A stretch of DNA of 63,044 bases from positions 5,259,069-5,322,112 of the forward strand of contig NC_057751.1 in NCBI RefSeq assembly GCF_004010195.1, read 5' to 3'. Source of the stretch: Chiloscyllium plagiosum. Its lineage: Eukaryota. The position numbers and the translations under genes are program-made. Below the pieces are notes generated by a model. The model saw only the letters and a program-made list of their open reading frames with translations, had not been told where the DNA came from and ran no database searches. Positions 1 through 63,044 of the stretch are shown here, piece after piece (positions within the stretch are counted from its first letter, which is position 1; each line of letters begins with the position of its first letter).

Positions 1-442
1 TACTGACTCAGTAGACAAACCTTCCTCAACAACCTTTGTTTCTGTAGCTGTGATGCACTCTCTGATTTGCAATGCTACACCCCCTCCTCTTTTTCCACCC
101 TCCCTGTTCTTTCTAAACGTTCTAAATCCTGGAACATCAAGCAGCCATTCCTGCCCCTGTGAAACCCACATCTCTGTTATGGCCACAACATTGTCGCCCC
201 AAGTACTGATCCATGCTCTAAGTTTGTCACTCTTATTTCAGACACTCCTTGCATTAAAGCAGACACACTTTAACCGGTCACTTTGTTTCATCCCATGAAA
301 AACCTTCCCAATAGATTCACTATGTCCTGTTACTGCCCCATCTACAACTACACCCTTCTCAGATATTTAGCTCTGGTTCCCACCCCTGCCAAACTAGCTT
401 AAACCCTCCCGAACCACACGAGCAAATCTCCCACCGAGGACA
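1..442 (-). mobile_element. CR1-clade LINE fragment: end of ORF1 and N-terminus of ORF2 endonuclease (decayed)
   Basis: Minus-strand translation gives VLGGRFARVVREGLS* (ORF1 end), then CVCFNARS...VAITEMW...PGFRTFRKNREGGKRGGGVAL, typical of the CR1 APE endonuclease start; it contains a stop/frameshift. Confidence 0.85.
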
Positions 443-3800: not shown

Positions 3801-4054
3801 GTGTGGGGAGGGTGAAAGAATGTTTCGGGTCGAATCATTTCTCATGAACATCAGCATCCAGTGTGTGCTTCGGCCCTGCCCTGTGTCCGGAATGTTCACT
3901 GAACATTGAATTCAGTCAAGTTGTCTTACATGGCCAGGGGTCCAGAAAGGGGGGGGGGGGAGAGGCAGAGATACAGAGGTAGAAAGTTAGAAAGAGAGAG
4001 ATGGACATAGATAGACAGACAGATACAAATGAAAAGAGAGACTCAAACTAAATT

Positions 4055-5625
4055 GTCTGTGGCTCAGCCTACACAACATAACGTCCTGTAAAGTGAAGCA
4101 GAACAGATTAGTGGGCAAAAAGATATCCCTCCCAATGAGCTTAATGCACTTCCCACTCAGTTGGAACAGCAGGTCAGTGAGACAGTATTGTTACCTGCCC
4201 TCACAACCCCAGATATCACTGTAGCCAGACTCACTGCTGCTGATGTCAGATAGAGCTTTGTGAGAGTGAACCCATGACCAGTGACTGGCCTGGATGGAGT
4301 CCCTGGCTGTGCACTCAGATCCTGTGCTGGGAGTACTCATTGACATCTTTAACCTCACCTGCTTTAAGAAGACCACCATCATCCAGGTACCAACGAAAGT
4401 ACAGGCAATATGCTCTAATGACTCTGCCCTCCATAATCATCAAGTGCTTTGGGAGGCTGGTCATGACTGATATCCACTCCAGCATCCCAGTCTATCCCGA
4501 TCTCTTACAATTCACTTACTGGTGAAACTGGCCCACAGCAACCACCTTTTCCCTGTGCTCATCCCCGGAACATCTGGATAATAAGGACACCTACCTCAAG
4601 CTCCTATTTATTGACAACAGCTCCACCTTCAACATCATAATCCCAACCAAATTTATCTCCAAACTCCCAGACCTAGGTCTCTGCTCTGTACTCTGGAACT
4701 GGATCCTCCCCTTCCTGACCCACAGACTGTGAAGATAGACAACAGCACCTCCTCCACAATAACCCACAACACTGGAACCCCACAAGGCTGTGTACTCAGT
4801 CCCTTAGTGTACTCCCTGTACACTCAGGATTGTGTGGTCGATTTTCACCTGAGCACCATTGACAAGTTTGCTGACAACACCCCCATTGTAGGCCAGATAT
4901 GAAGTAAGGAGGAGATAGAAAAGAGGAAAGAGGTCGAATGCCTGGTGGTGTGGTCTAATGATAACAATCTCTCCCTTAATGTCAGCAAACCTAAAGGACT
5001 GACCATTGACTTCAGGAACCAAGGCGGAGGATACACCCCAACCTACATCAATGGGAGCTGAGGCAGAGAGGGTCAAGAGCATCAAGTTCCTCAGAGTAAA
5101 GATAACCAAGAATCAGTCCTGGCTTATCCACGTTGATATGACAGTCAGGAAGGTCAGGAAATTCAGCATCTTCAGAAGGACCACCTTTTACAGATACACC
5201 ACTGACAGCATGCTATCTGGGTGCTCTGTGTGGGACCGTAACAAGTTACAGGGAGTCGTGTACACAGCTCAGTCCATCACACAAGCCAACCTTCTATCCA
5301 TTGGCTCCATCTACACTCCCCGCTGCCACCATCAACAAATACCCCTCCCACCCCGGTTATCATCTCTTCCATTTTCTTCCGCCAGGCATAAGATACAAAA
5401 GCTTAAACACACGTACCAACAGGTTCAAGAACAGCTTCTTCCCCGCTGTTATTTCAATTCGGAGCGAATCTCTCAAATTTTAAGTTTAATGTCGATCTCT
5501 CTCTTTGTGCCCCTTCTCTGCAGTTGGAACATTGTATTTCTCACTCCGTTCAATCACCCTGTGATCTTTGTGTGGTATGACCTGTCTGTACTGCGCACAA
5601 AACAAAACTTCCCATTGACAGTGTC
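4055..5625 (+). mobile_element. Rex1/Babar-like LINE, decayed RT and 3' end
   Basis: Fragments such as [52 protein letters not shown] and GIRYKSLNTRTNRFKNSFFPAVI; many frameshifts. Confidence 0.8.
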
Positions 5626-5829
5626 ATGATGCTCTTCCAAGTGTGTGTTATAGCGATACCAAGGAACGGGTGACAAACTAAGATCTGCTGCTGCTGCCCC
5701 TGGATTGATCTTGTAACTGGGTCACTTTCTGGGCCATTGCAGTCTTGTCCTCCCTCCCTCCCTCCCTCCGCAGTGACAGCCAGATTCCTGGCTAAACAAA
5801 CATGACAGAGATTAAACAAGCCCAACAGA

Positions 5830-6108
5830 GCAGATAGAGGGCGTTTGGCCCATCGTGTCTGAAGAACAGCCCATCCACCACTCATATCCTGCCTTTCCTG
5901 TGGCTTACCCTCCTGGTCTGCACATCCCAGGACACTGTGGGGAATTTCCCATGGCTAATCCACCCTAACCTGCGCATCTTTGGACTGTGGGAGGAAACCC
6001 ACACAGATACGGGAGAGGATGCAAACTCCACACAGACAGTGGCTCAAGGATGGAATCGAACCCGGGTTCCTGGTGCTGAGAGACAGATGTGCTGACCATT
6101 GAGCTACT
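5830..6108 (-). mobile_element. HE1-like SINE, diverged
   Basis: Reverse-complement V-core (catctttggactgtgggaggaaacc...gcaaactccacacagacag) and B box. Confidence 0.8.
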
Positions 6109-6164
6109 GTCCAGCCTTTGACAGATGTTGATGTACTCCAGGACAAAGATGCATTGCATTGCCA

Positions 6165-6550
6165 TCAGAATAATATTACTAACAAAGAATAACATCCTAA
6201 TGGGACTGGACTGGGTCAATGTGTTCCCAATGGCAGGGGAGTTCAGAACCAGTGGGGGGAGGGAACAGTCTGAGGATAATGGGCAAGGCCATTTAGGATT
6301 GGGATGGGGAGAAGTGTCTTCATCCAGAGAGTGGGAAGCCGAGGGGAAAGTAGCTTATGGCAAAACATGGAATGCTTTCTAAGGAGGAGGTAGATGCCAT
6401 GATTTATGATCCAGTCCTTGGGACTAAAAGGGATGACAGGGTACTGGGGAGAAAGCGTGTACAGAGGATTGAGTTGGATGATCAGCCATGACCATACTGA
6501 ATGGTGGAGCAGGCTCGAAGGGCCGAATGGCCTACTCCTGTTTTCCATGC
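6165..6550 (+). mobile_element. CR1 LINE 3' tail, decayed
   Basis: Ends with gatcagccatga..tgaatggtggagcaggctcgaagggccgaatggcctactcctg, a CR1-type tail repeated elsewhere in the window. Confidence 0.7.
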
Positions 6551-8233
6551 TTTTTTGACAACAGCAGAATTGACAAAGTAAATGACTCCTAATGCCACAG
6601 AGACTGACTGGAGAATTGGAGGGGTCAGTGGTGGATGTCAGCAAACGTTTAGACCAGCCAGGACCAGTGGGAACTTAGGAGAAACCTGTCCACCCAGAGA
6701 GTGGTGAGAATATGGGGGAGGGAGGCCTGGAAGGGGGTGCCTTTGGGAGTGGGGTGGGGTGGAGGGGGAGACCTAGATAAAGCAGAAGGAAGAAAGCAGT
6801 GTGGAGATCAGGTGGAGGTAGGGTGTGGAAGGGGAGGCTGTGTGTCAGCACTGGGAGGGTTGCTGTTGGTTGCAGTGGTCTCTAAGTGTCTGGTGAAAAA
6901 GCAGATCTTCATTGGCAGCAGGGAAACATCAGATGTCAGCACTTGGCCCCACCCACCGACACACACATACACACTCTCTGTCTCGGTCCAGAATAGGAAA
7001 TTGGAACGGAATCACTCTCTCCCAGCCATTGGGTGGTGCTCTCACCAAAGAAAACAAAGCCAGCCGTGGTAATGGACTTCAAAAGGGAACTGAGTCAAGG
7101 CAGGGTGCTAACTCACACTGTCTCTCATAGACACACACACATCTCCCATCATTTCTCTGTTTGCTTCTGTCCACTTCAGGTCTGAGAATTCACAGCTTGG
7201 CACACGTTCATTGTGGGCATCGTCCCCCTGGGTGGTGATTTCCTGCACCTGCCCACAGCCAGCAGGCTGACCGACCGTATCAGACAGGTGCAGAGGTCCC
7301 ATGTAAACACAGTCCCTCACCCAGATCACCACAAACTGGTGGGAAACCTCAGGGCGAGGCAGGGCAGTGAATCACTGTCAAAGCAGTGAGGTTCCCAAAA
7401 ACATGCCTGGCTGTCAGATTCTTGATACACAGCCTGAGTGTGTGTGTGTCCATTGATGCTTTCCACAGTGGAGCAGGAGAACAGAGCATTTAACAGCTGG
7501 AGCTTTATTTTGGAGATATTTGTCCACCAAAAGACAGGAAGGTTACACAAAGCTGTCTCCTGCTTAGAAAATAGCCAATGGCGTCATTGCTAGCTCACGT
7601 GATTGGACTGTCATGCAACAGTCCGCCATGCAATACAAACACAACATCCACATGGTGTGCCCTCCACATGAAGACAGTGACAACAGCCAGGCTTATTCAC
7701 CTGCACTTACAGAGCTCCATCACTGGGTGGCACTATCACACAATCTCATCAACTCCAAGCTCATATCTCCAAGAGGGTCATTGCTCACACTCTACAAACC
7801 CCCCCCCCAGTTTTCCACGGATCTCACACTGGATCCCACCCACTTACAGGAGGATGGCGATCCCACACTTTTCCACATGGATGTGGGATGGGACAATCAG
7901 ATCACACCCACCCTGAGGATGTTCTGAGGCTGCAGAACGTCAGTCATTGGGGTGAGGATTGGCAGAGATTGGCCGATCAGAAGCAACTACCCAGCGAGGG
8001 CCACAGTGTTGTCGATGAGCGTGGGAGAACTGAGCCAAGCGTTCGCCATTTACCCCCTCCCCGCTCCCCCCCCCACCACCACCATAAATGAAGCTGATCA
8101 GAAGACTCAGAGAAAACAATAACGTTTAATCCCCTTCCCCTTTCAACAATTCGGGTGCCATGGAGGGCAACGATAGCAGATGCATGGGACCGCCATCACA
8201 ACCTGAGATTCCCTTTACCAATGTCACTGTCAA

Positions 8234-8547
8234 CGGCACGGTGGTTAGCACTGCTGCCTCGCAGCACCAGAGACCCGGGTTCAATTCCCGCCTCAGGCAA
8301 CTGTCTGTGTGGAGTTTGCACATTCTCCCTGTGTCTGCGTGGGTTTCCTCCGGGTGCTCCGGTTTCCTCCCACAGACCAAAAATGTGTAGGTTAGGTGAG
8401 TTGGCCATGCTAAATTGCCCGTAGTGTTAGGTAAGGGGTAAATAGAGGGGAATGGGTCTGGGTGGGTTGCGTTTCAGCGGGTCAGTGTGGACTTGTTGGG
8501 CCGATGTGCCTGTTTCCACACTGTAACGAATCTAAATCTAAACTAAA
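8234..8547 (+). mobile_element. HE1-like SINE
   Basis: Near-identical to 3104-3436; aatgtcac occurs on both flanks (possible TSD). Confidence 0.9.
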
Positions 8548-9737
8548 TGTCACACTGACCTAGAACAACAGGGCAGTCAAAATCCCCACATCTTCCTGAC
8601 TCCACTTGGGGTGTGTGTGTGTGTGACAGAGACTGTGTGTGTCTGTCAGAGAGTGTGTGAATGTGCCTGTGTATCTGTTCCCCCAACAGCCATCAGCCAG
8701 TCCAGAGGGCAGCTCCTTATGCAGCAGCCCCAGTTACACCAGCCTGGCCAATGATCCTCCCAGACCATCAGTGAATCCAAGGACAGCAGGCCAGCTCAGA
8801 GCCACACCAGCGGCCAGGAACCATGATCACTCGCCGGAGAGTGCGACCTGTGGAACACCGAGGTGCCCAGTAGGAGCGTCGTCTGTCTGCCCCTACCCTC
8901 AGAAGGACAGCTAACATCATCTTACAGCACCCACCTTTGAGTAATGAACCCAGCCCTGGATAGCCTGCTCAGGTTTCTGCTCTTTTCCAACACCCCTGGG
9001 ACCTTGTGGTATCACCAAACTTCACGGTACACCAGAGGCCCTTCGGCCCACCTGGTCTGTCCTGTACCAGTCCCACCTTCCTGGCCTGGATTATTACCCA
9101 GCTCCTCCCAGTCTGTGGTACAGGGGTGTCCCTAATGTCCAAACCTCTGACTTATGAACACTTGCATTTCCAGGTGTGATCACATAAAGACCCAATGTTT
9201 TACAAAGGGGCTGCTTGATCTTGTCCCAAACTGAGTCCCCACTTCCATCCAGACCCTGTTCCAAAATGTGGGGTCTGCCTGGACTCACCTGGATGGACAG
9301 TTTCTCAGCCTCCTGTGTCTCGTGACGAGTGGGAGAGGATAACTCCCTACACTGTTAACTCCCTACAGAACAGATAACACAAAGAGGGTCACTGCATGAC
9401 TGCAGGAAACACAACTGGCTTTGTTCAGGCATCATCCATACCACTTCCTGGAGCTGCTACAGACTTGCCTGCTCCCTCTGAAAGCTGGGGAACAACTTCT
9501 CATCTCTCTGCACGGACTGCAGGGTGCTATCTGGAGAATGGGTGGGGCCGATGGGAAACAAACATTAACCCCATCACAACTGTGTGCAAGATCATTATCA
9601 CCAGCCACCTGCTCCCCCCACCATCTCAGATACCTTTCACCACACTCTCTGTATGTTATTAAAGCCTTTCGCCTGTACTCACTCACAGTGATGTGGGAGG
9701 CACTGGCTGGGTCTGGGTTTATTGCCAATTCCCAATT

Positions 9738-10075
9738 CATAGAATCCCAACAGCGTGGAAGCAAGCCATTTGGCCTTTCAAGTCCACACCGACCCTGCCG
9801 ACCAGACACACGCCCCTACCTAATCCATGTAACCCTGCCTTTCCAATGGCTAACCCCCCTAGCCTGCACATCCCCAGACTCTATGGGAAATTTCCCATGG
9901 CCAATCCACCCTAACCTGAGCATCTTTGGACTGTGGGAGGAAACCGGAGCACCCGGAGGAGACCCACGCAAACACGGGGAGAATGTGCAAACTCCCACAC
10001 AGACATTGGCCAGAGGGTGGAATCGAACCTGTATCCCTGGTGCTGTGAGGCAGCAGGGCTAACCACTGAGCCTCT
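9738..10075 (-). mobile_element. HE1-like SINE
   Basis: Reverse-complement V-core and tRNA head. Confidence 0.85.
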
Positions 10076-10699
10076 GTACAGAGAGGGGCAGTGATATCCT
10101 TCCATGAACCATTGCATACGGTATCGGTCGACCCATCATGCTGTTACAGAGAGAGCTCCAAGGTCTCGAGCTGATGAGAAGGAAGGAAGGAAGGAAGGAA
10201 GGAAGGAGGGAAACTGGATTGGATTCTTCTCCCTACTCCAGAACCTTGAACGTTCTTCACAGGTCGGGAATTGTTTTGAGGTGTGACATTCACTGCTCCT
10301 TCCAGTCAGAACCTGAAACTTACAGACACCCACCCAAAGAGCCTGGCCATAATTCTGTCCCAGTTAACTATCTCCTCAGTTCCCATACTGCCTTTCAGGA
10401 ACACTGCTGTAACCTTTAACATCCACTAGATGCCAGACAGAGCAATTGAAAATGGATGGGAGAGAAGCTGCTAAAGGGGATTGGGAAAAGGGGACTTGGA
10501 ATGGATGTTTCCTCTTGGGAGAGCAATCTAGAACCAGAGGCCATTAGTTGCAGCGTCCGTGTGTGGCAAAGCTGAGAAGGAATTACTTCCCTGGAATTCA
10601 CTGCCCGAGAGTGTGATTGATGCTGGGATATTGGAAAAGCAGCAGGCTGTGTGTATACCTGTGAAGCTGTTTTGATTTATCCTGGAGATGGGAGTTTCA

Positions 10700-15450: not shown

Positions 15451-15625
15451 TTCAACTGAATGGTTCAGAGGGCAGGTGATAGTAACCCACATTGCTATGG
15501 GTCTGGAGTCACATGTAGGCCAGAATGGGTAAGGGCAGATGATTTCCTTCCCGAAAGGACATCAGTGAAGGTCTAGGATGAACACAAGGAGGATCCTGAA
15601 TGTACCTTTGTGTGTTCAGTATTAC

Positions 15626-15724
15626 AGCTGAAAATGTGTTGCTGGAACAGTGCAGCAGGTCAGGCAGCATCCTGGGAACAGGAGAATCGACGTTTCGGGC
15701 ATAAGCCCTTCTTCCGGATTCTCC
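15626..15724 (-). mobile_element. Penelope-like terminal repeat fragment (family A)
   Basis: Homologous to 56110-56234, 43443-43562 and 34414-34541; hammerhead-like motif with core CGGAAGA. Confidence 0.65.
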
Positions 15725-16485
15725 GCTCACAAATCCGAAGCCCCTGTTCAGTATTACATCCAAGAATTACTTGGAGTTCAGTCCATGGAATGCACCGTGA
15801 TGCTGAACACATGCATCATTTCCCAATGATCCAGGATGGACTGGTTTGTAATGCCTGACTGGTAACTCCCTGCCCATCCTCCAGAGGATTTACCAATGAC
15901 ACTGAGGCATTGCCAGGTGTAGAGATAGAGCACTCAGGGTTGTTTGGTGGTGAGGGATTTCTAACCACCTTAGGTTGCAGTTCACGAAAGGTCTCAGTAA
16001 CAAGAATGAGTTCTTGATAGACCGATTTGGACATAGTCCTTCTCACATACAAAGGTTAGTGTCACCTCACTGTGGTCTATTGTTGCTGAAGATGGATTCA
16101 GGTTAAAAAGCAGACTCCCCCCCCCCATGTGGAGTGAGTGTGTGTGACAGCCCCACAGGAAGATCCACAGATTGCTGATGGGGTGTCCCAGGTGTTGCAA
16201 CATCACTGGCCATATGACGTGACGCAAGTTCTCCCTCTGACCAATGGAGAGGCAGGACAAGTGACTCAGACATCAGCTGAAGGAAAATCTCAATGCTGTG
16301 CTGCTCCACCAAACTTTCCTCAGGACCATCCCCCTGTCAGAATGAGATGGAAAACCCAACATCCTCCAACGCTGAGTAACACAGGCACATCATAGAACTG
16401 GTACTGTGCTCAAGGAGCCTTTTCAGCCTATCATTCTGACGCCTGGTGGAAATCTGTACCCCATTTCCCTGCACACCATTTCTAT

Positions 16486-34367: not shown

Positions 34368-34413
34368 GCAGCTCCATCAATCTCACGTCATCAGACAGTT
34401 CCAGGGATAATCT

Positions 34414-34830
34414 AGGAGAAGGTGAGGACTGCAGATGCTGGAGATCTGAGCTGAAAAATGTGTTGCTGGAAAAGCGCAGCAGGTCCGGCAGCATCCAAGG
34501 AGCAGGAGAATCGACGTTTCGGGCATGAGCCCTTTCAGGAATGGGGAAAGTGTGCCAAGCGGGCTAAGATAAAAGGTAGGGAGGAGGGACTTGGGGGAGG
34601 GGTGTTGGAAATGCAATAGGTGGAAGGAGGTTAAGGTGAGGGTGATTTGGGCAGAGGAGATGACCTGGGGTGTGTAGTGAGAGAGGGACTCACTGAAATC
34701 ATTGTAGAGGGAGGAAGGCATCCTTGCAAGAGGATTCGCAGTAGGTTAAGATTCATGCCCGAAACATCGATTCTCCTGCTCCTTGGATGCTGCCTGACCT
34801 GCTGCGCTTTTCCAGCAACACATTTTCAGT
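34414..34830. mobile_element. Penelope-like element remnant with inverted terminal arms (family A)
   Basis: 34451-34527 and 34753-34829 are reverse complements of each other; the outer left part matches 56110-56234. Confidence 0.7.
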
Positions 34831-34997
34831 TCCAGGGATTAGCCTAGTGAACATTTACTACTCTCCCTCTATGTCAGCTAAATCCTTCAGGACAGACACC
34901 ATACATTCTGCACATGGACTACATGACTGCATCTTCAGTCTTCCATCTGATTCCTGATGCAAGGAAGGCAGACATTTGAATTTGCTTGTTGTCTAAA

Positions 34998-35285
34998 ATC
35001 ATACAATCCCTACAGTGTGGAAACAGGCCATTTGGCCCAACACCGACCCTCCGAAGAGGTATCCCATCCAGACCATCCTCCTATTACTCTGCATTTCCCC
35101 TGACCAATTCACCTAACCTGCACACCTTTGGACTGTGGGAGGAAACTAGAGCACCCGGAGGAAACCCATGCAGACAGGGGGAGGATGTGCAAACTCCACA
35201 CAGACAGTTACCGGAGACTGGAATCAAACCCAGGTCCCTGGCGCTGTGAGGCAGCAGTGCTAACCAATCAGCCACCGTGCCATCC
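34998..35285 (-). mobile_element. HE1-like SINE
   Basis: Reverse-complement V-core and head. Confidence 0.85.
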
Positions 35286-40437: not shown

Positions 40438-40676
40438 ATGTGGAGGAGCCGGTGTCGGACTGGGGTGGTTATAGTCGGACAGGTTTCTTTGGAAGCACTA
40501 GCTTTCAGAGCACTGCTTCTTCATCAGGTAGCTGGTCAGGCAGGATCTTTTACTATAAATTCTGTGTCCTATGATCCTGCCCAACTAGCTACCTCATGAA
40601 GAAGCAGCACTCTGAAAGCTAGTGTTCCAAAGAAACCTGTGGGATTGTGACCTGGTGTTGTGTGATTTTTCAACTT
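40438..40676. mobile_element. Palindromic Penelope-like remnant (family B)
   Basis: Arms of about 80 bp (40467-40547 and 40573-40655) are imperfect reverse complements; each carries a hammerhead-like motif. Confidence 0.7.
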
Positions 40677-41872: not shown

Positions 41873-41975
41873 CAGTTCTGGGGAAGGGTCACTGGACCTG
41901 AAACGTTAACGCTGCCAAAACTGCTAGGGTTTTCCAACAGTTTCTGCTTTTGCATCTGGTTTTCAGCATCCTTGG
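41873..41975 (+). mobile_element. Penelope-like terminal repeat fragment (family D)
   Basis: gtt-CTGGGGA-A-GGGTC-ACTG-GACCT-GAAA-C-GTT-aac; homologous to 53181-53280. Confidence 0.6.
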
Positions 41976-43104: not shown

Positions 43105-43411
43105 ATTTAGATTACTTACAGTGTGGAAACAGGCCCTTCGGCCCAACAAGTCCACACCAACCCGCCGAAGCACAACCCACCCATACCCCTACATTTACCC
43201 CTTTACCTAACACTACGGGCAATTTAGCATGGCCAATTCACCTGACCTGCACATCTTTGGACTGTGGGAGGAAACCAGAGCACCCGGAGGAAACCCACGC
43301 AGACATGGGGAGAATGTGCAAACTCCACACAGTCGCCTGAGTCGGGAATTGAACCCGGGTCTCTGGTGCTGTGAGGCAGCAGTACTAACCACTGTGCCAC
43401 TGTGCCGCCCA
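43105..43411 (-). mobile_element. HE1-like SINE, young
   Basis: Reverse complement nearly identical to 3104-3436. Confidence 0.9.
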
Positions 43412-43442: not shown

Positions 43443-43562
43443 AAGGGCTCATGCCCGAAACGTCGATTCTCCTGTTCCTTGGATGCTGCCTGACCTGCTG
43501 CGCTTTTTCAGCAACACATTTTCAACTCTGATCTCCAGCATCTGCAGTCCTCACTTTCTCCT
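43443..43562 (+). mobile_element. Penelope-like terminal repeat fragment (family A)
   Basis: Near-identical to 56116-56234. Confidence 0.7.
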
Positions 43563-43574
43563 CGAAGATTTACA

Positions 43575-44110
43575 CCTCTATGCTTTCTACCTCACACTTT
43601 CCCACATTGTATATCATCTACCACGTCTTTGTGCACTCTCCCAGCCTGTCCAAGTCCTTCCACAGCCTCCCTGTTTCCTTGACACTACCTGTCCCTCTAC
43701 CTGTCTTTGTGTCACCTGCAAACTCAGCGTCAATGTTTTCAGCTCCTTTTCCCAGATCGTTGATGTATAACGTGAATAGCTGTGGTCCCAACACTGAACC
43801 CCCGTGGAACTCCACTAGTCACCGGCTGCCATTCCTGAGAAAGACCCCTTTCTCCCCACTATCGGCCTTCTGCCAGTCAGCCGATCCTCTACCCATGCCA
43901 GTACCTTGCCCCTAACACCACGGGCTCTTACCTTACTCAGCAGCCTCCTGTGCAGCATCTTATCAAAGGCCCTCTGGAAATCCAAGTCGATCACACCCAC
44001 TGGCTCTCCTTTGTCTAACTTACTCCCTCTCTCCTCACAGAATTCAAACAAATCTGTCAGGCATGACCTCCCATGATGAGGCTGTGTTGACTCAGTCCGA
44101 TTTTACTGTG
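43575..44110 (-). mobile_element. CR1 LINE RT fragment
   Basis: LDFQRAFDKMLHRRLLSKV..GSVLGPQLFTLYINDL..FAGDTK. Confidence 0.88.
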
Positions 44111-49784: not shown

Positions 49785-50312
49785 GCAGCAAGTAACTCCC
49801 CTCCTGACGCCCCAAAGCCTGTCCACCATCTACAAGGCACAACTCAGGAGTGGGATGGAATACTTCCTACTTGCCTGGATGGGGGCAGCTCCAAAACAGG
49901 TCAAGAAGCTGTAAATAAATTCTGTTTTGTTTTACACTAAGTGGTTGGGCCAGCTGTATCCCTCCTGGAATATCCACTATACACCTGCTTAAAACAACTA
50001 GCAAGGTTAGAGTCCGGGCTACTTTCTTGCACCTCCTGATGCTACCATCCAGGACAAATCAGCCCATTTGATTGGCCCCACATCCATCACCATCCACTCC
50101 CTCCACCACCGACCCTCAGCAGTAGCAGCGTGTACCATCTACAAGATGCACTGCAGCAATTCACCAAAGTACCTCAGACAGCACCTTCCAAACCCACGCC
50201 CACTTCCATATAGAAGGGAAAGAGCAGCAGATACATGGGAACACCACCCTCTGCAAGTTCCTCTCCAAGCCACTCACCATCCTGACTTGGAAATATAATG
50301 CCATTCCTTCAG
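49785..50312 (+). mobile_element. CR1-clade LINE 3' fragment interrupted by a 138-bp templated insertion
   Basis: LTPQSLSTIYKAQLRSGMEYFLLAWMGAAP..KKL before the insertion; TIQDKSAHLIG..HSLHHRPSAVAACTIYKMHCSNSP after it. Confidence 0.75.
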
Positions 50313-51121
50313 TTCTTTAATAACACTATGGATCTCGTGGACTCTCCCAGATTAAGAAACCTCACCTGCACAAGGGAAAATAGGGATGTCCACTAAATGC
50401 ATGAATAAGTAAGAATACGTCTTTCATCTTGCTGTCTAATGCCTCGTTCACTGGGACATTACCTGGAGGTTATTGATGCTGCTTTGGATTGTGAAAGTAG
50501 CACTCTCTGATCACCTGATAACCATGGTGTCAGACCCAAAGCACAACATCTCTCCTGTCCTGCTGATCCAACTGGAGATTGTCCTGCGACACTTCAATTA
50601 ACAAATCTTCGGAAACGGCTGGTCAGGGGAAATGAAAGAGCAGCTGCTCGGAGAGCCTTTGCTAATGTGTGAGTGAGAGGAAAGGCTGCAATGTGAAGAG
50701 ATCCTGGTTTAGGGACACTTATATAGAAAACAATTCCAACAGGAGAAGGATGCATTGACAAGGAATACACAGCAAGAGGCATCATTCCAAGGTGTTTTGA
50801 AAGCTTACCAACTCATGGGCTTGACATCAAGCTGCCCAAGATACGCAGAAAATTCCCAGATAAAATCTGTCTTCTCATCCATACTGTCCTGTTGACTTTC
50901 TGCTTCATCTGAAAATGGACAATATTTGTGAGGCTAGGCTGGTGAAGTAGACAGGCAGGAGGCTGGAAGAACACAGCAAGCCAGGTAGCATCAGGAGGTG
51001 CAAGAAAGTAGCCCGGACTCTAACCTTGCTAGTTGTTTTAAGCAGGTGTATAGTGGATATTCCAGGAGGGATACAGCTGGCCCAACCACTTAGTGTAAAA
51101 CAAAACAGAATTTATTTACAG
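49909..51121. repeat. Perfect 138-bp inverted repeat (49909-50046 and 50984-51121), 937-bp spacer
   Basis: Base-by-base reverse-complement comparison shows no mismatch. Confidence 0.95.
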
Positions 51122-51639: not shown

Positions 51640-51838
51640 ATTCCACCCCTCTTTCCACCCAAAACCCTCCCCCCTCCTTTATCTGCAGCTCCCCCTCCAC
51701 CCAGCCCCAGTCCTGAAGAAGGGTTCCACCCTGAAACATTGACTTCTCCCCCTCCTGCTGCTGCCAGGCTTGCTGAGTTCTTCCAGCCTCCTGCTTGTCT
51801 ACCTTGGATTCCAGCATCTGCAGTCCTTTTTGTCTCTG
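51640..51838 (+). mobile_element. Penelope-like terminal repeat (family C); inverted partner at 50945-51000
   Basis: AGTC-CTGAAGA-AGGGT-TCC-ACCCT-GAAA-C-ATT-GACT; 51750-51802 is the reverse complement of about 50947-50998. Confidence 0.65.
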
Positions 51839-52614
51839 ACTGTGTCCATGAAGCAGCCAAGGCTGATCCTATTTCTAGAAGTTTCTAAACCCCCTCACAT
51901 TGGATTGATATTCGAGCTGAAGCTGAGAGAAATGATGTGTCCTCTGCTTCCAACTCCTTCTGGACAAAGGAAACCACTGAGCCATTCTGTTCAAATGGAC
52001 CAGGTCACCCTGCATTGGAAACTTAAATAGGGGAGTGAAAGCTGCAGGAACTTGCATCAACAATATTAAACAAAGAACAGCAGAGGCTGGGAGATCTGAA
52101 TCTCAGCCCTTCCTGATGGAGAGTAACCAGACTGGAAATGTTAACTCTTGTTTCCTTCTTACGGATGTTGCCAAACCTACTGACTTCTGTTTGGTAATTT
52201 TAGTCATCCTGGTCAGAGATGTTGTGATTCTCCTCTGGAACAGATAGGACGTGAACCAAGGCATCCTGCTTCAGAGGTAGGGACACTACCACTGCGCCAC
52301 TGTGACGGGGAGCAGTACCTGAAAAGCCTGATGTTGTCAAATGGCTGAAAGCGAGGTGGATTGGTGTTCAGCAAAAGCATGACTCCAAGTGAGCTGGCAG
52401 TCGACCTCAGGCTCCCTATTTCTGTCTCCAACCAGCCCATATTCTGCCTGAAAGGAAGGAAAATGATTGGGTTGGGCTGACTCAGGAGGCTGGGAGAGGA
52501 CATTGACCTTTGGAAGTTGCAACTCATTTCTGATACCTCTGGATTGACGGCAGCTCATCATTTCTCACCAGACTGCTCTCCTTCCCCATTTTCCTGTCTG
52601 TGGACTAACCAAGC

Positions 52615-52940
52615 ACAGATTCCCTAAAGTGTGGACACAGGCCCTTTAGCCCAAGTCCACAACGACCCTCCAAAGAGTAACCCACGCAGACCCTAATTTA
52701 CCCTTGACTAATGCACCTAACCGACACATCGCTGAACATGATGGACAATTTAGCGTGGCTAATTCACCCGAGCCTGCACATCTTTGGATTGTGGGAGGAA
52801 ACCGGAGCACCCGGAGGAAACCCACGCAGACACTGGGAGAAAGTGCAAACTCCACACAGTCAGTCGCCCGAGGCTGGAATTGAACCCAGATCCCTAGCGC
52901 TGTGAGGCAGCAGGACTAGCCACCAAGCCACCCTGCCCCA
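52615..52940 (-). mobile_element. HE1-like SINE
   Basis: Reverse-complement V-core and head. Confidence 0.85.
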
Positions 52941-53084
52941 ACTTTTGTTTAATCAACTGTATTATTCACCTAACCCACCCCAAGGATTCTGCTGCGCATT
53001 TATTTCCAAATTCGGAATCAGAAAACCTAGGGTTTGAGGAACATGAGATTAAAAACTGGAGGAAATGATGGTGGAAATCAGAAA

Positions 53085-53280
53085 CAAAGACAGAAAGGGC
53101 TGGAAAAGCTCAGCAAGTCTGGCAGCATCTATGGAGAGAATTCAGAGTTAACCTTTCAGGTCCAGTGACTGGGCTGGAGGCAGTTCCGAGGAAGGATAAC
53201 TGGACCTGAAACGTTAACTGTGATTTCTCTCCACAGATGCTGCCAGACTTGCTGAGCTTTTCCAGCCCTTTCTGTCTTTG
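53085..53280. mobile_element. Palindromic Penelope-like remnant (family D), 82-bp arms
   Basis: 53085-53166 vs 53199-53280 reverse complement, 4 mismatches. Confidence 0.75.
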
Positions 53281-53501
53281 CTTGGGGAACACTGTTTGCC
53301 CTACCTCAGCGAAGGGTGGTGGTGAATACAGACAGGGGTTAATTGAATGATGCCTGACTGTCCTGGCCTTAAGCTGGGGAGAGCAATCATGTTATAAATT
53401 CAGCTTGATTGCTCCTGGCTCCATGTCAAACTGGTCACCCGCTGATGTACCAGTTCCATTTCAGACATCCCTATGATCTGCCCCCTTTCTTTCTTCCTCA
53501 G

Positions 53502-53570
53502 GCAGACCGTTCACGAAGTCTGGGAGCGACGGTCTATTGCGTCGGTGTCAAAGACTTCAATGAAACCCAG
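53502..53570 (+). CDS. ANTXR1: ANTXR1-like exon 7 (69 nt)
   Basis: ttcctcag|GCA GAC...: ADRSRSLGATVYCVGVKDFNETQ; donor CAG|gtgggt. Confidence 0.97.
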
Positions 53571-54275: not shown

Positions 54276-55244
54276 GCTGGCTTTACCTTTCACCAGAGGG
54301 TAAGAAGACCCTAGATTGTAGCTTCTGTGTGGCTCGGACACTGTCACAATGGTTGAAGATCTTTGGTTTGTAATCCTGGCCCTTCTTTCCCTTCACGGTA
54401 TCAGGTTTGGCACTTTGATGGAGAGACATTCCATCCATAACCACCTGATAATTTGTTCCATTCAGCACTGGCTTGGAGTATGCTCTTTCACTTGAATTGG
54501 AAACAAACTCTTCAGTGAGACCGTCCCTCTCAGATGCACCAAGTGGTTTTACAGGTGGGCAGATGGGCAGATGGGAGGGCAGTGTTGTCCTATTGAGGTG
54601 GCTGGTGTTACTGAGTGCTGTGCACACACAGACTGAGACACTGGCCATTCCCTGCCTTGTGTTCGAACAAAAACCCAGTCCAACATTAGACCCGCGCTCA
54701 ACTTTGTTCACCCTTTCCAGAGTTCCACATTCCTGTGTGGTATCTGCTGCGAACCCAGTGTTTCAAGCCAACCAATGATCCCAGGTATTGATGGGAATGC
54801 AGATTGGCAGCTCAGCCGCTGACCTGCACTTCTGCTTCAAAAAAACAAAAGGCCTAATTCACAAAGCAGATGGGAAATCGAAGCAGGCATTCCGATGATT
54901 CCTTGAATTCAAGGAATTGAAACTTGGCCAGCTTTCAAACGTGGGGCTCCAGTGAAAGCTCCCCGACTGAACAAACACAGATTCGGGATCTTTGGAGAAA
55001 TGGTTCCACGTGGCCCTGGCGAGTGGATGGGGGAGGGGGTACCTGTCACTCAGTCTGTTCACACCCCTCCTCCTCTCCCCCACTCTCCTGCTCTGTGCAT
55101 CTTTCCCTGGCTTTTCACCCACTGCCCTTTCACGGGAGGTTGTGTCCCAACGGTACGTTCCGACGCTTTCCAGGATAACCTATAAGTCAGACGTGCTCCC
55201 TGTCACCAGTCGTGTGGATTAAAAGCTCACCGTGCTTCCAGTTT

Positions 55245-55749: not shown

Positions 55750-56052
55750 AGGACTGTTAATCCAGGGACACGGGCCATGTTCTGGGGAGCCAGGCTTGAG
55801 TCCTGCTATGGCAGATGGTGGATTTTCAATTCAATAAACAATCTGGAATGAAGGGTCTAATAATGACCATTGTTGACAGTTGGAAAACCCATCTGGTTCA
55901 ATCATGTCCTGTCGGGAAGGAAACTGCCATCCTTACCTGGTCTGGCCTACATGTGACTCCAGACCCACAGCAAGGTGGTTGCCTCTTAACTGCCCTCTGG
56001 GCCATTAGGGATGGGCAATATGTGTTGGCCCTCATCCCGTGAGTGAATAAAA
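55750..56052 (+). mobile_element. SINE family 2 copy
   Basis: Core ccttacctggtctggcctacatgtgactccagacccacagcaa; tail attagggatgggcaata..catcccgtgagtgaataaaa. Confidence 0.75.
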
Positions 56053-56106
56053 ACATGTCATATTTGGTGTATTGGAGAAGATTGTTTAGGATGGGCTCCC
56101 CTTACT

Positions 56107-56140
56107 ATCCTGAAGAAGGGCTTATGCCCGAAACGTCGAT
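56107..56140 (+). ncRNA. Putative minimal type-I hammerhead ribozyme (Penelope-associated)
   Basis: ATC-CTGAAGA-A-GGGC-TTAT-GCCC-GAAA-C-GTC-GAT: core CUGANGA/GAAA, GUC triplet, stems I and II paired, palindromic ACGT stem III. Activity is untested. Confidence 0.55.
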
Positions 56141-56234
56141 TCTCCTGTTCCCTGGATGCTGCCTGACCTGCTGCGCTTTTCCAGCAACACATTTTCAGCT
56201 CTGATCTCCAGCATCTGCAGACCTCACTTTCTCC
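56110..56234 (+). mobile_element. Young Penelope-like insertion (family A) with a 15-bp flanking direct repeat
   Basis: ctccccttactatcc at 56096-56110 and 56231-56245. Confidence 0.75.
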
Positions 56235-56724
56235 CCTTACTATCCCATTGACTAGTAAAGTCCCACCTTCCAACATGGGAATTAATAGGAGCAGGCCATT
56301 CAGCCCATCATACCTGCGCTGCCAGACCTTCAAGCTCAGCCCTTTCCCCTTCCTGACCCCTGACCTTTGGTGCCTGTAACGTTCGGAAAGAGCCGCTGCT
56401 GATTCTAGCCCGTCAGAGTTTCCCCTGACCTTGGCTGAGGAGAGGGTCTGTTAGCCTGGGAGGGGTCTGCGGTAAGGTTGGGTGCTTCAATCCAGTCACT
56501 AAGGAGTAGCATGAGTCCTAATGTTCCACGGCTTGACGGCCAAGGTCGGTGCTTTTGAGAAGCTGCAGCCTTCATTCTTCGGCCAAACCGAAGAGGAGGA
56601 CTATTTGCTGCTCCATAGTGCAGAGTTACACCCTCAGATAGCTCAGCACTTCCATGCTCTCCATTGGCTCCTTCTGCCTGGAGGACAGGAACTCTTCTCA
56701 TTCTGAGCAGCTGACTGGATCACG

Positions 56725-59994: not shown

Positions 59995-60297
59995 CATCGA
60001 ATCCCTACAGGGTGGAGGGAAGCCATTCGACCCATCACCCACCCTCTCCCTGTCACCCTGCATTTCCCGTGGCTAACCCAGCACACCCCTGGACGCTATG
60101 GGTAATTTCCCATGGCCAATCCACCCCAACCTGCACACCTTTGGATTGTGGGAGGAAACCGGAGCACCCGGAGGAAACCCACACAGACACGGGAGAATGG
60201 GCAAATTCCACACAGACAGTTGCCCGAGGCTGGGATCGAACCTGGGACCCTGGTGTTGTGAGGCAGCAGTGCTAACCACTGAGCCACCATACCACCC
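59995..60297 (-). mobile_element. HE1-like SINE
   Basis: Reverse-complement V-core and head. Confidence 0.85.
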
Positions 60298-60494: not shown

Positions 60495-60575
60495 CTGGCT
60501 CGAATTGCAGATAGTAAAGACCACGTCTTCCCAGTAAATGACGGCTTTGAGGCTCTGCAAGGCATCATCGACTCG
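60495..60575 (+). CDS. ANTXR1: ANTXR1-like exon 8 (81 nt; end of VWA domain)
   Basis: gatgtag|CTG GCT CGA...: [27 protein letters not shown]; donor TCG|gtgagt. Confidence 0.97.
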
Positions 60576-61699
60576 GTGAGTGGTGTACGTGGCTATCCAG
60601 TGCAGGAACTTACAGACAGCTGCTTCCCATTAAATATGAGCTGCTCACTCCCCCCCCCCCCAGCTCAGAAAAAGGAAAGCTGCCTGGGGAAAGTTAGAAG
60701 CAGAGGAGAAGGCTTTGGGATCTGAGGGTTTGAAGCTGATTGTGGGAGAGTGGGTAGGGTGGGGGGAAACAGGGTCATCGCAGGACAACAAGGAAGCTGA
60801 CACTTATTTTGCAGCATCTGTACCGAATCAGAAAACACTCCTGCTCTCAATTCCTCAGCCATGCTCCGGCTTTCTACCCAGATTGGATTCCGCAGTCTTT
60901 TTCCTGATTGGTCTGCTGACAGCGATTATGCAACAGCAATTTGGGGGACTTGGCAGCGTCCCAGCCTCTGTTGCCCGGAGAGAAAGTGAGTGCTGCTCTC
61001 GCACACTGCACACTGTCAGACTTGTTGGTGGTACTGTACGCGGGTTGTGAGGGGACACAGAAATGGCTTTGCAATGACTGGAGCACCAGTTAGACAATTC
61101 AGTCAGCAGCACATAGTGAGCAGGCTGACCAGGAGTGAGCCAGGCACTGTTCACACAGATGTGTGTGTGCCTGGCCATGGAGGACCACAGGACAGAGGGA
61201 CACTGGTAGGCCATTAAGCTCAGCGTGGCAGTTCCACCAGACAGTGAATTCATGGCTGATCTCATCGGCCCATACTCTCCTCTGCCACCTTGCTCCCCCC
61301 ATGATTTAATGGCACTGCAGTTTGATCGGGGTGAGGAACAGAGTCTGTTCCTCGCACGTGGAGACCTGGGGTCTCTCTCCATTGGGAGCTGGAGTCTGAC
61401 TGGGAGGTGGAGAGAGTTTCCAAACGGATAGTGAACTGAGGGGAAAACAGTGAGCTGTTTACAGGACTGTCACCCCCACTGTGGAGGTGGCTCAATAAGG
61501 TTGCTGCTTTCCAACTCAGCATGACAAGAAAGTGGAGTTTCATATTCCCGAAGGAACACTGTGTGCTCAGGCAAGGCAACTTAAAACAGTGAGAAATTCC
61601 ACATCGTTTTCACCAGAAACTGAGAGAGCAGACAGATCCTGTTGCACGCTCATTCTGCACAAGACTACTTATTGTGGTCTGTCATGATCATCTCGAACA

Positions 61700-63044
61700 G
61701 TCATTCTATATCACAGGGTGTGGGTGACCCTCTGGTCATTCTATATCACAGGGTGTGGGTGACCCCCAGGTCATTCTGTGTCACAGGGAGTGTGTGACCC
61801 TCTGGTCATTCTGTGTCACAGGGTGTGAGTGACCCCCAGGTCATTCTGTGTCACAGGGAGTGGGTGACCCCCAGGTCATTCTGTGTCACAGGGAGTGGGT
61901 GACCCTCTGGTCATTCTGTGTCACAGGGAGTGGGTGACCCTCTGGTCATTCTATATCACAGGGTTCATTCTATATCACAGGGAGTGAGTGACCCTCTGGT
62001 CATTCTGTGTCACAGGGAGTGAGTGAACCTCTGGTCATTCTATATCACAGGGAGTGAGTGACCCTCTGGTCATTCTATATCACAGGGTGTGGGTGACCCT
62101 CTGGTCATTCTGTATCACAGAGAGTGAGTGACCCTCTGGTCATTCTGCGTCACAGGGAGTGGGTGACCCTCTGGTCATTCTATATCACAGGGTGTGGGTG
62201 ACCCCCAGGTCACTCTGTGTCACAGGGTGTGGGTGACCCTCTGGTCATTCTATATCACAGGGTGTGGGTGACCCTCTGGTCATTCTATATCACAGGGTGT
62301 GGGTGACCCCCAGGTCATTCTGTGTCACAGGGTGTGGGTGACCGTCTGGTCATTCTATATCACAGGGTGTGGGTGACCCCCAGGTCATTCTGTGTCACAG
62401 GGAGTGGGTGACCCTCTGGTCATTCTATATCACAGGGTGTGGGTGACCCCCAGGTCATTCTATATCACAGGGTGTGGGTGACCCCCAGGTCATTCTGTGT
62501 CACAGGGAGTGGGTGACCCTCTGGTCATTCTATATCACAGGGTGTGGGTGACCCTCTGGTCATTCTATATCACAGGGTGTGGGTGACCCTCTGGTCATTC
62601 TATATCACAGGGTGTGGGTGACCCTCTGGTCATTCTATATCACAGGGTGTGGGTGACCCCCAGGTCATTCTATATCACAGGGTGTGGGTGACCCCCAGGT
62701 CATTCTATATCACAGGGTGTGGGTGACCCCCAGGTCATTCTATATCACAGGGTGTGGGTGACCCCCAGGTCATTCTATATCACAGGGTGTGGGTGACCCC
62801 CAGGTCATTCTATATCACAGGGTGTGGGTGACCCCCAGGTCATTCTATATCACAGGGTGTGGGTGACCCCCAGGTCATTCTATATCACAGGGTGTGGGTG
62901 ACCCCCAGGTCATTCTATATCACAGGGTGTGGGTGACCCCCAGGTCATTCTATATCACAGGGTGTGGGTGACCCCCAGGTCATTCTATATCACAGGGTGT
63001 GGGTGACCCCCAGGTCATTCTGTGTCACAGGGAGTGTGTGACCC
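61700..63044. repeat. 35-bp minisatellite, about 38 copies, running off the window end (intron 8)
   Basis: Unit ggtcattctatatcacagggtgtgggtgacc(ctct/ccca) with variant positions. Confidence 0.97.

Follow-up and report, generated by a model that had tools for sequence, protein, structure and literature searches.

The 127-nt unit at 56108-56234 (plus strand) very likely derives from an endonuclease-bearing Penelope-like element (PLE), as a dead-on-arrival copy of its terminal repeat (pLTR) that was truncated at the 5′ end. It is an end module of a PLE-like group of sequences, family A. The unit shares 92-96% identity with four other copies in the window (the whole 63,044-nt stretch of DNA that was analysed) and coincides with a depth plateau.

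The boundaries of the insertion are marked by a 15-nt direct repeat on the plus strand, one copy at 56096-56110 and the other at 56231-56245. Among flanking repeats of at least 6 nt around both insertion ends, this was the only one found. As the original prediction held, the repeat overlaps both ends of the element, sharing TCC (56108-56110) with the 5′ end and CTCC (56231-56234) with the 3′ end. Because these overlaps amount to 3 nt and 4 nt, the true target-site duplication is 8-15 nt, with 15 nt as its upper limit. The insertion is a solo unit and not a tandem array with two or more complete hammerheads. Inspection of its sequence revealed no tRNA-like head or poly(A) tail, and comparison of the window copies found no adjacent inverted 5′-truncated partner at 56108 itself.

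In agreement with the predicted location, two consecutive ANTXR1-like exons flank the unit, which is in the sense orientation. The upstream exon is 69 nt long (53502-53570, plus; PDB match E 5.8e-07) and the downstream exon is 81 nt long (60495-60575, plus; PDB match E 1.6e-11). The intron is presumably number 7, if human exon sizes of 80/69/81 nt, which match those observed here, are taken as the guide.

The insertion is recent. Contigs ran across both junctions in both samples of organism A. In organism B, a relative about 4% apart, one contig aligned to 56231-56450 starting at letter 60, and the 204 letters compared contained 8 substitutions and a single 16-nt gap. The 59 letters ahead of this match were unlike the element and would extend back to 56037, which is the end of a repeat lying upstream. 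The depth of the contig, 15.3, equalled that of the left-flank bin 56070-56085. Judged by this contig and its depth, organism B appears to have an empty site with one element-free copy of the 15-mer; the joint itself does not appear among the joints listed. The claim of a young insertion is thus supported by the junction contigs in A and the inferred empty site in B. At 56152, C accounted for about 38% in organism A and 3.5% in B; at 56221, A accounted for 36-41% and 10%, respectively. These commoner alleles in A fit a subfamily that expanded after the split. Outside the unit, organism B lacks 16 nt of the window sequence at 56403-56418, and three substitutions at 56381-56395 separate the two organism-A samples.

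Family A forms four insertion units in the window. Besides 56108-56234, the unit at 15613-15758 (minus) contains a copy without the tail described below (15626-15719, core CGGAAGA), a 25-nt filler at the 5′ junction and a 14-nt duplication. Comparison of arms showed that the unit at 34396-34839 is a composite with a 13-nt duplication. Its minus arm (34411-34752) has the tail and about 210 nt of further upstream sequence, and faces, head to head, a truncated arm in inverted orientation that has no tail (34753-34832). The fourth copy (43443-43565, plus) is truncated within the core, and no duplication was found around it. Duplications of 15, 14 and 13 nt are therefore present at three of the four units. 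The 3′ ends take two positions that are 34 nt apart, equivalent to 56200 (15626 and 34832) or to 56234 (34411, 43561 and the 56108 copy). The interval 56201-56234 (plus) is an optional 34-nt 3′ extension, or tail, and read-contig joints depart from both positions.

Two features of these units deserve separate mention. At its junction end, the filler at 15720-15744 is complementary to the 8 nt that directly follow the predicted cut, so that stem I reaches 8 bp; no source of the filler was found in the window beyond a 10-nt match. In the composite, the upstream part (34640-34752, minus) contains a short frame that opens with ATG, for which no protein match was found. This part could represent the beginning of the parent's internal region, which a deletion would have joined to its 3′ region.

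Three more groups were confirmed in the window. In group B, the unit at 693-851 has a motif with its core at 753 (minus) that passed the strict descriptor and faces an A/D-like downstream piece in head-to-head arrangement, so that it looks like a chimeric insertion of two families. The second group-B unit (40467-40644) is a decayed head-to-head palindrome with cores at 40527 (minus) and 40593 (plus). The group-C copy (51705-51827, plus) has an intact core and has lost the stem III palindrome. Group D consists of a copy with a broken core (41873-41973, plus) and a head-to-head palindrome in which the core is broken (53186) or truncated (53082-53283). Inverted, 5′-truncated partners in head-to-head arrangement thus occur at 34411-34832, 40467-40644 and 53082-53283. 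Sequence downstream of the motif is common to groups A, C and D at 69-90% identity; comparison within the window revealed no such match for the sequence that follows the group-B motif.

The core was described originally as kept in all four families. CUGANGA is intact in 4 of the 10 cited copies (56110, 753, 40527 and 51713), while the rest are changed or deleted and no group-D copy is intact. A single core change was found at 15716, 40593, 41878 and 53186, a 2-nt deletion at 34538, and the 43443 copy starts inside the core. Two of the ten passed the full descriptor.

Several other repeats were noted in the window. A 35-nt tandem repeat of more than 30 units (61596-63044) reaches the window end. 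A dispersed SINE-like family with a tRNA-like part, putatively shark HE1, is found at 5886-6110, 9832-10077, 35034-35281, 43163-43403, 52690-52937 and 60047-60293, and a weak tRNA-like Rfam match lies at 52236-52306. The two arms of a perfect 138-nt inverted repeat (49909-50046 and 50984-51121) are 937 nt apart, and the second of them leads into a C-like downstream piece (50947-50998).

Three DNA runs and one RNA run were aligned to 55990-56450. Between 64,449 and 77,867 contigs per DNA run were placed on this interval, and the depth summed across the unit exceeded that of the flanks by a factor of about 1.4-1.6 million, a figure that is not a copy number. From the five arms in 63 kb, family A would have at least tens of thousands of copies, probably about 10^5, in line with the high copy number claimed for it. 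Among the positions listed, the family varies at N7 (15-26%), in loop II (up to 19%) and at CpG sites, and A15.1 varies at 0.2-0.4%. Loose contig ends before 56108 continue into the same upstream sequence as the 34411-34752 copy. The family therefore extends upstream of 56108, and the 56108 unit is 5′-truncated. The original prediction has the element begin exactly at the motif, but the family reaches about 210 nt further in the 34411-34752 copy. Its picture of discrete short retroelements or retrozymes gives way to a longer family with two 3′ ends, a tail and inversions.

This architecture resembles that of endonuclease-bearing PLEs. In rotifers, a 31-bp tail, target-site duplications of 8-10 bp and an adjacent inverted truncated copy have been described (Arkhipova et al. 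2013, PMC3846280, available text), and an optional tail of 30-40 bp is given for the group (Craig et al. 2021, PMC8557442, available text). Here, likewise, a 34-nt tail is present on one arm, with a head-to-head inverted arm, a duplication and microhomology at the 5′ junction. Compared with the rotifer elements, the duplications are 13-15 nt as upper bounds, overlaps included, instead of 8-10 nt, and no ORF was seen in the copies. The two 3′ ends match Anolis Poseidon PAc, in which two reverse transcription start sites downstream of the hammerhead define the tail (Frangieh et al. 2024, PMC11167929, available text). In PAc, uncut RNA serves as template and no RNA-seq ends lie at the cut site, as is the case here. 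PAc differs in that its ORF begins at stem II, whereas the ATG found in loop II/stem II of the 56108 copy opens a short frame only.

By analogy with Anolis Poseidon (PMC11167929), the parent RT/GIY-YIG protein would nick the intron. Reverse transcription would begin inside the RNA at the outer of the two start sites, giving the end at 56234 with the 34-nt tail. About 125 nt would be copied, through the uncut hammerhead, and the 5′ end would be joined to the target via 3 nt of microhomology. Staggered nicks would leave the duplication of 8-15 nt. The hammerhead is the ordinary minimal motif of the family, and activity in the parent transcript is expected only from a dimer or with the help of protein. 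What was read directly comprises the boundaries, the duplication, the pair of 3′ ends, the inverted partners, the motif with its covariation and the absence of a cut-site step.

DNA depth showed no step at the cut site (11.0M at 56137 and 10.9M at 56138 in data set X1). Family RNA reads crossed 56137 (465 + 700), and in 2,497 RNA reads from a fragmented polyA single-cell library neither beginnings nor ends piled up there on either strand. Libraries of this kind are weak for mapping RNA ends. The RNA reads are family-wide (2% of the run sampled, 0 on the unique flanks) and are uninformative for this intron. Because the copy spans the site, depth has no step and RNA ends do not pile up, the template appears to have been uncut at the hammerhead. 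PLE insertion has likewise been reported to use unprocessed RNA (PMC11167929, available text). Joints with inserted letters near 56137-56140 were considered as cut-site ligation and set aside, as their orientation was not given and they cannot be read in that way.

The RNA reads also differed from DNA in sequence. Across 56108-56234, A>G differences occurred at 14 places in RNA and at 2-3 in DNA. At A15.1 (56133), 75/673 RNA reads on one strand had A>G compared with 0.2-0.4% in DNA. The excess could reflect A-to-I editing of fold-back repeat RNA, or alternatively a few expressed loci, since C>A (56190) and T>G (56192) were raised in RNA as well.

A link between the terminal repeats and RT plus GIY-YIG ORFs had been proposed as a check, and none emerged in the window. 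We searched 298 window ORFs (stop-free, at least 70 aa, low-complexity filtered) with Pfam, and 0/298 matched GIY-YIG. Matches were Exo_endo_phos at 1-237 (minus) and RVT_1 at 4615-4899 (plus) and 43818-44102 (minus). The RVT_1 matches are not in line with any copy, and that at 43818-44102 opposes the strand of the nearby family-A copy. All three are probably old LINE fragments. A truncated copy is not expected to carry an RT or GIY-YIG ORF. Homologue searches with the upstream sequence of the composite accepted 0 of 136 candidates (34386-34745, minus) and 0 of 22 candidates (34626-34745, minus), and a protein atlas search with the upstream piece gave no usable match. The sole match among 1.84 billion representatives, a repetitive HYR-like secreted protein at 28% identity, was rejected. 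DNA pattern searches returned 0 matches in viral contigs, 0 in metagenome contigs and 0 in plasmids; a 21-nt match in a 66%-GC bacterial contig had no flanking similarity and was rejected as chance. The Penelope-like call of the original prediction agrees with architecture and motif consensus, although no RT/GIY-YIG ORF was found linked to family A. On this architecture, membership of the family among PLEs is supported.

Apart from the ORF search, which linked no RT or GIY-YIG frame to the family, two findings count against the main explanation. First, the family-A 5′ ends correspond to 56108, ~56107, 56116 and 56122, with one about 210 nt upstream. Four of the five arms thus begin within 15 nt (56108-56122 equivalents) and none begins between there and the 3′ end, which random truncation does not predict. 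Counts of loose ends are uninformative on this clustering because the common upstream sequence collapses into few contigs. Second, two of the three duplicated family-A targets, with an AT content of 46-47%, are not AT-rich.

The clustering near the core suits a self-propagating non-autonomous element (a SINE-like 'mini-PLE' or a retrozyme), for which a short RNA from the front edge of the hammerhead would be the template, mobilised in trans by PLE protein. The very high contig numbers are in keeping with this, as are a few head-to-tail joints from 56234 to 56109 (2 contigs each in X1 and X5, among the joints listed), and retrozymes are reported in one chondrichthyan (bioRxiv 10.64898/2026.07.22.740005, available text). 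We nevertheless consider it unlikely. The 5′ ends differ from one another and miss the cut site, the tandem joints are low-depth rarities, and no discrete ends were seen in the 2,497 RNA reads. The unit has neither a tRNA-like head nor a poly(A) tail, and helix I has 3 bp instead of the canonical 6 bp with tertiary loop contacts. In the available parts of PMC7229834 and bioRxiv 10.64898/2026.07.22.740005, non-LTR retrozymes are likewise short, non-coding and pLTR-related with a type I hammerhead; however, they are tandem arrays with at least 2 motifs, whereas here a solo truncated unit has ends that ignore the cut site. Metazoan retrozymes have canonical motifs and circular RNA (PMC7229834, available text).

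We also regard as doubtful a further reading of the pile-up of 5′ ends at the front edge of the hammerhead. The short unit would not be debris of random truncation. A defined short RNA, delimited by a promoter, by a splice site or where RT stops at the protein-bound ribozyme, would be the preferred template and give a SINE-like pLTR derivative at ~10^5 copies. Its sense-strand intronic load, pairing via ACGU palindromes or acting with PLE protein, would then select flank-masked or mutated cores as at 56110. If this were true, the function of PLE hammerheads would be testable by population statistics.

The truncated pLTR copy carries a minimal type I hammerhead at 56107-56140 (plus), which reads AUC-CUGAAGA-A-GGGC-uuau-GCCC-GAAA-C-GU-C^GAU and conforms to the consensus given by PMC4209133 (supplement file 2, available part). 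Stem I is 56107-56109/56138-56140 and C3-A9 are 56110-56116. Stem II is 56118-56121/56126-56129 (GGGC/GCCC), followed by GAAA (56130-56133), which overlaps the palindromic ACGU (56133-56136). The predicted cut is after C17 at 56137, and both the sequence and the strict descriptor agree with the original call of an intact motif cleaved there. Features of PLE hammerheads are present, namely an extra A (56117) after A9, G10.1-C11.1 (G56118-C56129) and 15.2-16.2 (C56134-G56135). In the 5′ strand of stem I, UC is common to the family's own upstream sequence and A56107 alone comes from the target only. The claim that target bases complete stem I is thus right for one of three bases, whereas the family supplies the other two. 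At the position where A56107 gives a third contiguous pair, the common family form is a U.U mismatch; a variant at 56140 that would pair this position was present at 7-8% in organism A and 0.2% in B.

The strict descriptor matched twice in the window (56110 plus and 753 minus), whereas none of 300 dinucleotide shuffles gave a match. With the three looser settings, 4, 7 and 4 sites were found, and in each the count was reached by 0/300 shuffles; with one core mismatch and relaxed stem II, the 7 matches compare with a shuffle mean of 0.023. A candidate at 54515 matched a loose setting only, failed the stricter descriptor and was discarded. The extra nucleotide after A9 was A in 8/8 copies found by the descriptor, which leaves this position unconstrained. 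To compare the stems, pairs were counted from anchors in 9 copies of the four groups; the 43443 copy, without a 5′ core, was omitted. Own stem I strands paired at 31/36 positions, compared with 108/232 when strands were crossed between families. Pair 15.2-16.2 was kept in 8/9 within copies and in 17/58 across families. The predicted palindromic mini stem III therefore holds broadly and is lost in the C copy, and the claim that stems change yet still pair is borne out, as is that of several hammerhead families with covarying stems. These compensatory changes back a genuine hammerhead motif, as support and not as a formal test, since the four lineages are related and the counts are uncorrected for phylogeny.

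According to folding predictions, the core is sequestered in the pre-mRNA. A flank-to-core hairpin (56085-56116, plus) pairs 56085-56095 with 56105-56116 at a probability of at least 0.97 (0.97-1.0), masking the 5′ strand of stem I and C3-A6. In this context the predicted stem-I pair probability fell to 0.00, compared with 0.17-0.20 once the flank was removed, and the hammerhead fold could be kept only at a cost of 8.0-9.8 kcal/mol. Fold z-scores were near zero, and a descriptor search found no second hammerhead motif in the same intron. Since the core is predicted to be sequestered and no second motif is available, cleavage of the pre-mRNA by this copy is unlikely. The suggestion that a sense-strand intronic copy could cleave pre-mRNA finds little room here, with a flank hairpin of 8-10 kcal/mol and no partner motif, and the hammerhead at this locus is probably an inactive passenger. 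The accompanying expectation that monomers are weak agrees with published work, in which no cleavage of a PLE minimal hammerhead (min-HHR) monomer was seen (PMC4209133, available text).

Cleavage of ANTXR1-like pre-mRNA in vivo with an effect on processing would be compatible with the pLTR explanation, and we hold it to be very improbable. The intact core, the sense orientation and the third contiguous stem-I pair added by the target A speak for it, and the Anolis PLE hammerhead cleaves when PLE protein is present (PMC11167929, available text). Against these stand the competing hairpin, the lack of a second motif in the intron, the inert monomer and the 8/9 Xenopus dimers that did not cleave (bioRxiv 10.64898/2026.07.22.740005, available text), together with the family RNA reads that cross the site. 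Chance resemblance to a hammerhead in the tail of another repeat, such as a LINE 3′ end, is largely refuted by the shuffles, by the compensatory changes across four groups and by the pattern of tail, inversion and duplication, even though the z-scores are near zero, no ORF is linked and an Rfam scan of the window (17 matches at E<=10) contained no hammerhead family.

The arrangement as a whole is already described in fishes and other animals, and this copy is another instance of it. In fishes, coelacanth (~4,000) and Xenopus (~9,000), each genome is reported to have several consensus families of min-HHRs, most of them solo motifs that belong to truncated PLEs (Cervera & De la Pena 2014, PMC4209133, available text), a pattern that is the same here. 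The idea of an under-described system is therefore not sustained. The min-HHRs of metazoan PLE pLTRs in that paper (fish Xena/Poseidon/Neptune, Latimeria, Xenopus and turtle) have the same core, CUGANGA-H-stem II-GAAA-N-N'-U-H, with a helix I of 3-4 bp. They also have the same extra base after A9 and a palindromic 15.2-16.2, and C G U C and G C U U are both in the available part of the alignment. Helix II, with 4-5 bp here, is at the short end of their range. Abundance here looks higher than 4,000-9,000, a comparison made with figures that are not a true copy number. In supplement file 2 of PMC4209133, 'shark' and 'Callorhinchus' have 0 mentions, and the available part of the alignment has no shark row. 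Penelope elements are already listed for whale shark (PMC8455134, available text), and a literature search on hammerhead plus Penelope in shark or cartilaginous fish gave nothing on the subject, judged by title or abstract start.

The insertion at 56108-56234 offers a clean and dated instance of an element class that is known, in a thinly documented lineage. Repeat annotation could make use of it, and its presence or absence can serve as a marker to tell two close organisms apart; it also adds small genomic support to PLE copies being made from uncut RNA. Its import would be larger only if the clustering of 5′ ends and a bias against unmasked sense intronic copies hold genome-wide. Such a pattern would bear on the role of the PLE hammerhead (PMC8557442, PMC11167929, available text).
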